Position numbers and translations under genes: made by a program. Positions 51,355 to 51,481 of a stretch of DNA of 64,000 nucleotides are shown here, piece after piece; positions within the stretch are counted from its first letter, which is position 1; each line of letters begins with the position of its first letter. Origin of the DNA: Escherichia coli (GTDB taxonomy: Bacteria > Pseudomonadota > Gammaproteobacteria > Enterobacterales > Enterobacteriaceae); NCBI RefSeq assembly GCF_030384885.1, contig NZ_CP128613.1; one strand, given 5' to 3'. Under the pieces are notes generated by a model. It was not told the DNA's origin. It saw only the letters and a list, made by a program, of their open reading frames with translations, and made no database searches.

Positions 51355-51481
51355 GTAATACTCCGTTGACTGAAACAACCAGGTGTTGCTTGAACATGAA
51401 ATCCGAATGAAATAACGCCGTTATGGCGATAAAGTAATCTCATTCGGATGTCGTATAAGATTAGAACAGTGACAGTCGTTT

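Follow-up and report, generated by a model that had tools for sequence, protein, structure and literature searches.

The hexR and pykA genes lie in tandem on the minus strand of the 64,000-nucleotide stretch of Escherichia coli DNA analysed here (the window, to which all positions refer unless stated otherwise), with zwf upstream of the pair and divergent from it, and lpxM downstream and convergent. The region from 51300 to 51540 is 98.3% identical to K-12, and matches to it are found in 5425 of 5426 complete genomes. In MG1655 coordinates yebK/hexR ends at 1,937,521 and pykA starts at 1,937,649; between them, at 1,937,554-1,937,602, is a hairpin whose outer stem begins 32 nt 3′ of the hexR stop in E. 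coli. The features of the locus are listed here in window order.

49782..49808, minus strand: canonical intrinsic terminator of pykA, used as positive control; corresponds to the Term-seq 3′ end 1,939,223 in MG1655
49912..51354, minus strand: pykA coding sequence, with its ATG at 51354 (RefSeq annotation)
51355..51400, minus strand: pykA leader, from the hairpin to the ATG; nearly invariant across Enterobacteriaceae; SD GGAG at 51361-51364
51391..51400, minus strand: degenerate U-tract UUCAUGUUCA, which follows the stem immediately; U at 5 of its first 8 positions
51401..51413, minus strand: 3′ strand of the outer stem, AUUUCAUUCGGAU, including the perfect 10-nt arm (51401-51410)
51416..51428, minus strand: inner hairpin CGCC-AUAAC-GGCG, 4 bp and a 5-nt loop that varies among E. 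coli strains
51429..51436, minus strand: 8-nt internal loop UACUUUAU; site of a C/A polymorphism between the present strain and K-12
51437..51449, minus strand: 5′ strand of the outer stem, AUCCGAAUGAGAU, including the perfect 10-nt arm (51440-51449); the basal 6 bp are conserved and covarying in 64 species
51459, minus strand: pykA P1-P2 start, C, at -105; the 13-bp outer stem follows 10 nt downstream (Olvera 2009, PMC2759082, mapped onto the window)
51482..52351, minus strand: hexR (yebK) coding sequence, stop codon included (RefSeq and open reading frame list)
51509, minus strand: pykA P3-P4 start, G, published as -153 and counted here as 155, inside the 3′ end of hexR (PMC2759082, mapped)
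51545..51558, minus strand: FNR box TTGAAGCGGGTCAA, at a class II position ~42 nt upstream of the P3-P4 start (Grainger 2006, PMC1802558; Myers 2013, PMC3688515)
51599, minus strand: third pykA start, at -245 (1,935,428 in U00096.2), inside hexR (Kim 2012, PMC3415461 supplement, mapped)

In the mechanical list of open reading frames pykA is eight codons longer than the RefSeq gene, with a TTG at 51378 as its first codon; the RefSeq annotation and the conserved SD GGAG at 51361-51364 support the ATG at 51354. Two further observations concern the hexR end of the spacer. A perfect 13-bp palindrome, ACTTAATTTAAGT, occupies 51493-51505 on the minus strand, within the last hexR codons and between the P3-P4 start and the hexR stop. 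E. coli GPEC1186 (L002) has a 15-bp deletion (AAAACGACTGTCACT), aligned to window positions 51467-51481 directly after the hexR stop, which takes out the region upstream of the published P1 start and leaves the hairpin and leader untouched.

A preliminary description made from the letters of the window alone had reported a nested inverted repeat in this spacer, and its coordinates are exact: the arms atccgaatga (51401-51410) and tcattcggat (51440-51449) are separated by 29 nt that include a cgcc/ggcg repeat at 51416-51428. The placement between the hexR stop and the pykA start, with both genes on the minus strand, also agrees with the gene coordinates. The repeat is longer than first described, as the outer stem reaches 13 bp in the minus-strand RNA (51449-51437 with 51413-51401, including one G·U pair). 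This RNA folds into a 49-nt hairpin in which an 8/2 internal loop separates the 13-bp outer stem from a 4-bp inner stem with a 5-nt loop. The 55-nt element has a ΔG of -21.5 kcal/mol and a z-score of -6.3, with none of 200 shuffles as stable. Folding of the pykA leader, which had been proposed as a check, returned the hairpin as an independent domain of the P1 transcript, preceded by 7 nt that are unpaired at the 5′ end.

A perfect repeat is by itself not rare in this DNA, since 13 perfect inverted repeats of at least 10 bp with loops of 3-40 nt occur in the 64-kb window, against 2.1 ± 1.3 in dinucleotide shuffles; the hairpin is taken as real on the comparative evidence rather than on the repeat alone. 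The notion that it is a chance palindrome or a neutral remnant with no function has in its favour that about two perfect 10-bp inverted repeats are expected per 64 kb, but both stems have stayed paired by compensatory changes and pairing is kept among interiors of unrelated sequence, and we regard this explanation as very improbable. Elsewhere in the window, an inverted repeat with 11-bp arms and a 28-nt loop (54284-54333) stands just past the zwf stop (54164), with an architecture like that of the hexR-pykA hairpin, and two more perfect inverted repeats, at 25175-25220 and 25853-25882, have arms of 14 bp and 13 bp.

A scan of the genome collection for HexR yielded 80 species, in 79 of which pykA follows hexR, the remaining locus being incomplete. 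Conservation across Enterobacteriaceae had been named as a point to examine, and it is borne out: the hairpin is found at the same site in about 64 species, ~46 nt from the pykA ATG and in hexR-pykA synteny, with a covarying base helix. The spacers share a common plan, in which a variable stretch after the hexR stop is followed by the hairpin, a U-rich variable tail, the nearly invariant leader of ~46 nt and the pykA ATG. Across these spacers the distance from hairpin to pykA ATG is fixed, while that from hairpin to hexR stop varies. The base of the hairpin is a 6-bp helix, 5′-AUYCGG with CCGRAU-3′. A covariance model was built on this helix and 72 loci were realigned to it; the raw MAFFT alignment was dropped because it misregistered the 3′ arm, so that RNAalifold paired only 4 bp, spuriously, between the 5′ arm and the SD region. 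In the 72-locus covariance-model alignment the base helix has 95.8% paired cells, compared with at most 60% when the partner columns are slid. Two of its pairs change on both sides (UA 49, CG 16; GC 59, CG 2, AU 1), a covariation that goes back to only a few independent events. The switch from C:G to U:A divides E. coli from E. albertii and also two Kosakonia species from two others, with Trabulsiella carrying the U·G intermediate.

Above the base helix, the hairpin interiors measure 8-40 nt and are unrelated in sequence between genera, and they are more stable than dinucleotide-shuffled counterparts in 61 of 64 species (95%; mean z -1.5). Within Escherichia the 19-pair structure of E. coli is 96% paired, with compensatory changes at 5 of the 19 pairs. 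Two of these changes affect the four pairs of the inner stem, which passes from CGCC/GGCG to AACC/GGUU in E. albertii and in locus L005. The preliminary description had conceded that a lack of conservation of the inner palindrome would tell against it; through these two compensatory pairs the inner stem is in fact kept in Escherichia. Among the sampled E. coli strains substitutions are confined to the loops, and a single strain lacks 1 nt of the inner stem. A Citrobacter metagenome-assembled genome (L024, 2492-2739) carries an insert of ~160 nt with an ERIC-like element inside the hairpin loop, and both arms are intact. Selection acts on the shape of the hairpin and not on the sequence of its interior. 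What was first seen as a nested inverted repeat is a genuine stem-loop of the RNA, and it has been conserved in the Enterobacteriaceae. The base helix, together in many genera with the adjacent 5′ interior (CAUUCGGUUAAGUU), is more conserved in sequence than pure structure requires, and this may reflect a sequence-specific partner or, in those genera, an overlapping promoter.

ERIC/IRU-like insertions in the hexR-pykA spacer were seen at L024:2492-2739 and in two Pectobacterium loci (L073:3371-3752 and L074:3371-3831). These elements (..AGTGACTGGGGTGAGC..GCCAACGCAC..GAAGTATGACGGGT) resemble the ERIC/IRU consensus. The hairpin itself does not belong to the REP, BIME or ERIC repeat families: the 61-nt element occurs at one place per genome (median) in 5425 of 5426 complete E. 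coli genomes, with no dispersed copies even at E ≤ 10. The MG1655 record has no annotation between yebK/hexR and pykA, Rfam gave no match at the E. coli hairpin or in ten orthologous loci of other species, and our literature search found no paper describing a hexR-pykA hairpin. It is, in short, an unannotated element of an ordinary kind.

The types of mismatch-tolerant pair identify the strand on which the structure is maintained. G·U pairs, which are valid on the sense RNA only, outnumber A·C pairs 30 to 4, so that the selected object is an RNA hairpin on the sense hexR/pykA transcript. The preliminary description had suggested that the repeat might be an operator and that it should be compared with HexR operators. 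The HexR-like operator pattern is TGTA-N7-TACA, and no palindrome of this pattern was found in the E. coli hexR-pykA spacer. A perfect 10-bp dyad that is intergenic and adjoins a regulator gene would suit an operator at which HexR, Cra or some other dimeric regulator binds the DNA, or a site that extrudes as a cruciform, but the spacing of the arms ranges from 8 to 40 nt between species and is ~160 nt greater in the one insertion locus, which excludes a dyad operator; tolerance of G·U and not of A·C is an RNA signature. HexR has moreover been described as a local regulator of zwf in Enterobacteriales (PMC5343134), and we give an operator or cruciform almost no credence.

The same spacer looks different outside the family. 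In Serratia (L071, L076, L078), Rahnella (L079, L081, L083) and Pectobacterium (L072-L075) it is longer and without the Enterobacteriaceae hairpin, and HexR-like palindromes (TGTAGTAAAATTACA, TGTATTACAATTACA) are present upstream of pykA; in Serratia the arms of a 9-bp inverted repeat (GAGTGAAAT/ATTTCACTC) stand on either side of the palindrome. HexR may accordingly control pykA in these three genera, despite the description of a local zwf regulator in Enterobacteriales (PMC5343134). The Rfam KDPG-aldolase RNA (RF03115) scores above the gathering threshold on the minus strand upstream of zwf/hexR in Serratia (L071:527-604) and Pectobacterium (L073:485-570).

Mapping of transcription starts, another of the checks that had been proposed, could be drawn from published data. 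Olvera et al. mapped pykA starts by 5′RACE and confirmed them by in vitro transcription (PMC2759082), pykA is directly activated by FNR (PMC1802558, PMC3688515), and the supplement of Kim et al. adds the third start at -245 (PMC3415461). The hairpin lies downstream of all published starts (-105, about -155 and -245) and is consequently part of every pykA transcript. The suggestion of an RNA leader structure thus holds, in that a sense-RNA helix maintained by compensatory changes and by the 30:4 excess of G·U over A·C is positioned downstream of every published pykA start. The portions of the SMRT-Cappable-seq and Cappable-seq supplementary data available to us contained no pykA or hexR entries. 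No sigma-70 consensus promoter was found in the window or in loci L048, L060 and L015. By eye, many non-Escherichia genera show TTGTAA-N18-TAAGTT, a putative -35/-10-like arrangement over the 5′ half of the hairpin. Some 10-25 nt before the hairpin (A2 columns 47-66), most non-Escherichia genera (L053, L060, L062 and others) also share TAACAAnGTTGTAAC(y)T(w)TTA, an imperfect dyad TAACAA/TTGTAA that has diverged in E. coli, Citrobacter and Salmonella; its reverse complement presents GTTA repeats 11 bp apart and resembles an ArcA box.

On the pykA side, the 46-nt leader (UGUUCAcGCAACACC..GUUGUUUCAGUCAACGGAGUAUUAC; A2 columns 130-180) is almost invariant in about 65 Enterobacteriaceae species, far beyond the needs of an SD. 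The site of pairing by the DicF sRNA is the pykA RBS region (PMC5069750), which is downstream of the hairpin, so that DicF pairing does not explain the hairpin. Since DicF is prophage-borne, the leader may have some other conserved partner or structure.

These observations bear on the main rival to the boundary element that we propose below, namely that the hairpin serves pykA only, either as a 5′-proximal stem-loop that stabilizes the P1 mRNA against 5′-end-dependent decay or by pausing RNA polymerase before the RBS, with no termination involved. The hairpin is fixed ~46 nt from the ATG beside an invariant leader while its distance to the hexR stop varies, the P1 start is 10 nt upstream of the outer stem with 7 nt unpaired at the 5′ end in the fold, no 3′ end has been mapped at the hairpin, and the U-tract is not conserved. 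These seven unpaired nucleotides, taken with the published -105 start, nevertheless weaken the case for 5′ stabilization; for ompA, Bouvet and Belasco reportedly found in 1992 that about 5 unpaired 5′ nucleotides already abolish protection. The hairpin is also internal in the -155 and -245 transcripts. A function restricted to the pykA leader is therefore unlikely in our judgement, if a serious candidate.

As regards termination, the preliminary description erred in stating that the relevant strand has no flanking U-tract: the minus-strand 3′ flank UUCAUGUUCA is a degenerate U-tract with 5 U in its first 8 nucleotides. Across species the tail has 3-7 U in 8, with 3-4 in 8 in 42 of 64 species and 5 in E. 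coli, where the tail UUCAUGUU is interrupted; only in the Cedecea and Buttiauxella orthologues do the first 8 nt contain 6-7 U. The accompanying statement that the hairpin is not an obvious intrinsic terminator stands. A scan for intrinsic-terminator patterns from 51200 to 51700 found nothing, and the same scan detects the pykA terminator at 49808-49782. We also computed a discriminant from the hairpin and its tail, in a form said to go back to the intrinsic-terminator formula of d'Aubenton Carafa from 1990, with the pykA terminator as positive control. The E. coli hairpin scores -5.8, close to the threshold, against +30 to +48 for the pykA terminator, and the score is below zero in 60 of 61 species and above it in one. 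In the curated Term-seq set of Adams 2021, which covers three conditions, there is no plus-strand 3′ end between MG1655 positions 1,930,402 and 1,939,223, the latter being the listed 3′ end of the pykA terminator (PMC7815308). A true hexR 3′ end might miss the curation thresholds because hexR is weakly expressed, and the weight of this result against the outcome that the preliminary description had feared, a Term-seq signal of a simple hexR terminator, is limited accordingly.

That the hairpin is the efficient, ordinary intrinsic terminator of hexR is consequently improbable. Its U-rich 3′ flank and its place only 32 nt past the end of hexR, and the 6-7 U in 8 of the Cedecea and Buttiauxella orthologues, speak for it; efficient termination would silence pykA, every mapped pykA start being upstream, and the absence of a curated Term-seq 3′ end at the site, the negative discriminants in 60 of 61 species and the empty result from 51200 to 51700 of a scan that does recognize the pykA terminator all speak against it. 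What is present is a stable stem-loop on the transcribed strand downstream of the hexR stop. An uninterrupted U-tract (about 7-9 nt, U-rich proximally) after a compact GC-rich stem is not, and curated Term-seq has no in vivo RNA 3′ ends at the U-tract, a negative weakened by low hexR expression. The hairpin is terminator-like in form and cannot be an efficient terminator.

A more elaborate possibility is regulation at the hairpin itself. As a regulated attenuator, or as a site at which an RNA-binding protein or sRNA recognizes the conserved AUUCGG/CCGAAU base, it would tune FNR- or sigma-S-driven transcription from hexR into pykA. The base helix and 5′ interior sequence are conserved beyond structural need, an FNR-activated pykA promoter lies upstream of the hairpin, and in E. 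coli the outer stem could face competition from an alternative pairing of UAAUCUUAU with AUGAGAUUA. A hypervariable interior that tolerates an insertion of ~160 nt argues, however, for no aptamer-like core, Rfam returned no match, and no short attenuated transcript appears in Term-seq. A conserved anti-terminator or switch was considered and rejected: the E. coli alternative is a 9-bp pairing of 51463-51455 with 51443-51435, and the alternative structures of other species lie in different, lineage-specific registers and do not exceed shuffles in stability (mean z -0.21). A leader peptide was likewise rejected, there being no conserved upstream open reading frame; the sole one, 51312-51443 (43 aa), starts at an ATG in the 5′ arm of E. 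coli that is absent in other genera. The locus thus lacks the conserved aptamer core, exclusive anti-terminator, leader peptide or Rfam match by which riboswitches and attenuators are recognized, and we consider regulation of this kind doubtful. It is equally doubtful that the hairpin and the invariant 46-nt leader together form an undescribed, family-wide cis-regulatory RNA of pykA, acting as an attenuator or through a protein or sRNA site at AUUCGG/CCGAAU; were this so, such an RNA would set the share of FNR- and sigma-S-dependent transcription from the hexR promoters that becomes pyruvate kinase II.

The explanation to which we lean, tentatively, is that the hairpin is a passive boundary element of RNA structure that acts at most as a leaky terminator, a 3′ decay barrier or both, and that insulates the pykA leader. 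The stem-loop forms in the sense RNA (window minus strand), where the message of hexR gives way to the conserved leader of pykA. Transcripts that start at the hexR promoter must cross it, as must those from the three pykA promoters on the map, of which two are within hexR. With its degenerate U-tract the terminator-like hairpin would stop a minor fraction of polymerases at most. Once formed, it could block 3′-to-5′ exonucleases and so provide a stable 3′ end for hexR-containing RNA, and it may keep the invariant 46-nt ribosome-binding leader of pykA folded independently of the variable RNA upstream. From the observed structure, strand, conservation, covariation and position relative to the published starts and 3′ ends, we infer these three roles of weak termination, decay barrier and leader insulation. 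Termination may not be the selected function, because a hexR terminator downstream of the pykA promoters would be counter-productive. Against a purely passive boundary element stands the sequence conservation of the base helix and CAUUCGGUUAAGUU, which exceeds structural need.

The gene pykA is central to glycolysis and has weak promoters, and of its three mapped starts two fall within hexR, the regulator gene upstream. The hairpin is a candidate determinant of both pykA and hexR mRNA levels, and its presence is a caveat for any engineering or deletion of the hexR-pykA spacer. It also shows that in a boundary hairpin a strongly conserved shape can go together with a lack of canonical terminator behaviour.

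Among known systems, the hairpin resembles Rho-independent terminators, including leaky inter-cistronic ones, in being a sense-RNA stem-loop just after a stop codon, with a U-rich stretch next to it and an interior that is free to vary while pairing is kept. It differs from intrinsic terminators in being long (49 nt), AU-rich at its base and interrupted, in its broken U-tract (UUCAUGUU), in the negative discriminant of 60 of 61 species, in the lack of a mapped 3′ end and in having the promoters of the downstream gene upstream of it. Attenuators and riboswitch leaders share its position in a 5′ UTR between promoter and RBS and its terminator-like form; unlike them, it is without a conserved ligand-binding core, leader peptide, anti-terminator or Rfam family. 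With REP-type 3′ barriers and ompA-type 5′ stem-loops it has in common that a stable, sequence-tolerant hairpin stands at a gene boundary or near a 5′ end, with a predicted function that depends on the stem only. In contrast to REP/BIME elements it is single-copy; in contrast to the ompA type, and going by the published P1 5′ end (5′RACE, -105), it would start 7-10 nt from that end and not at the end itself. The closest kinds are therefore leaky inter-cistronic intrinsic terminators and the stabilizing stem-loops found at mRNA ends.
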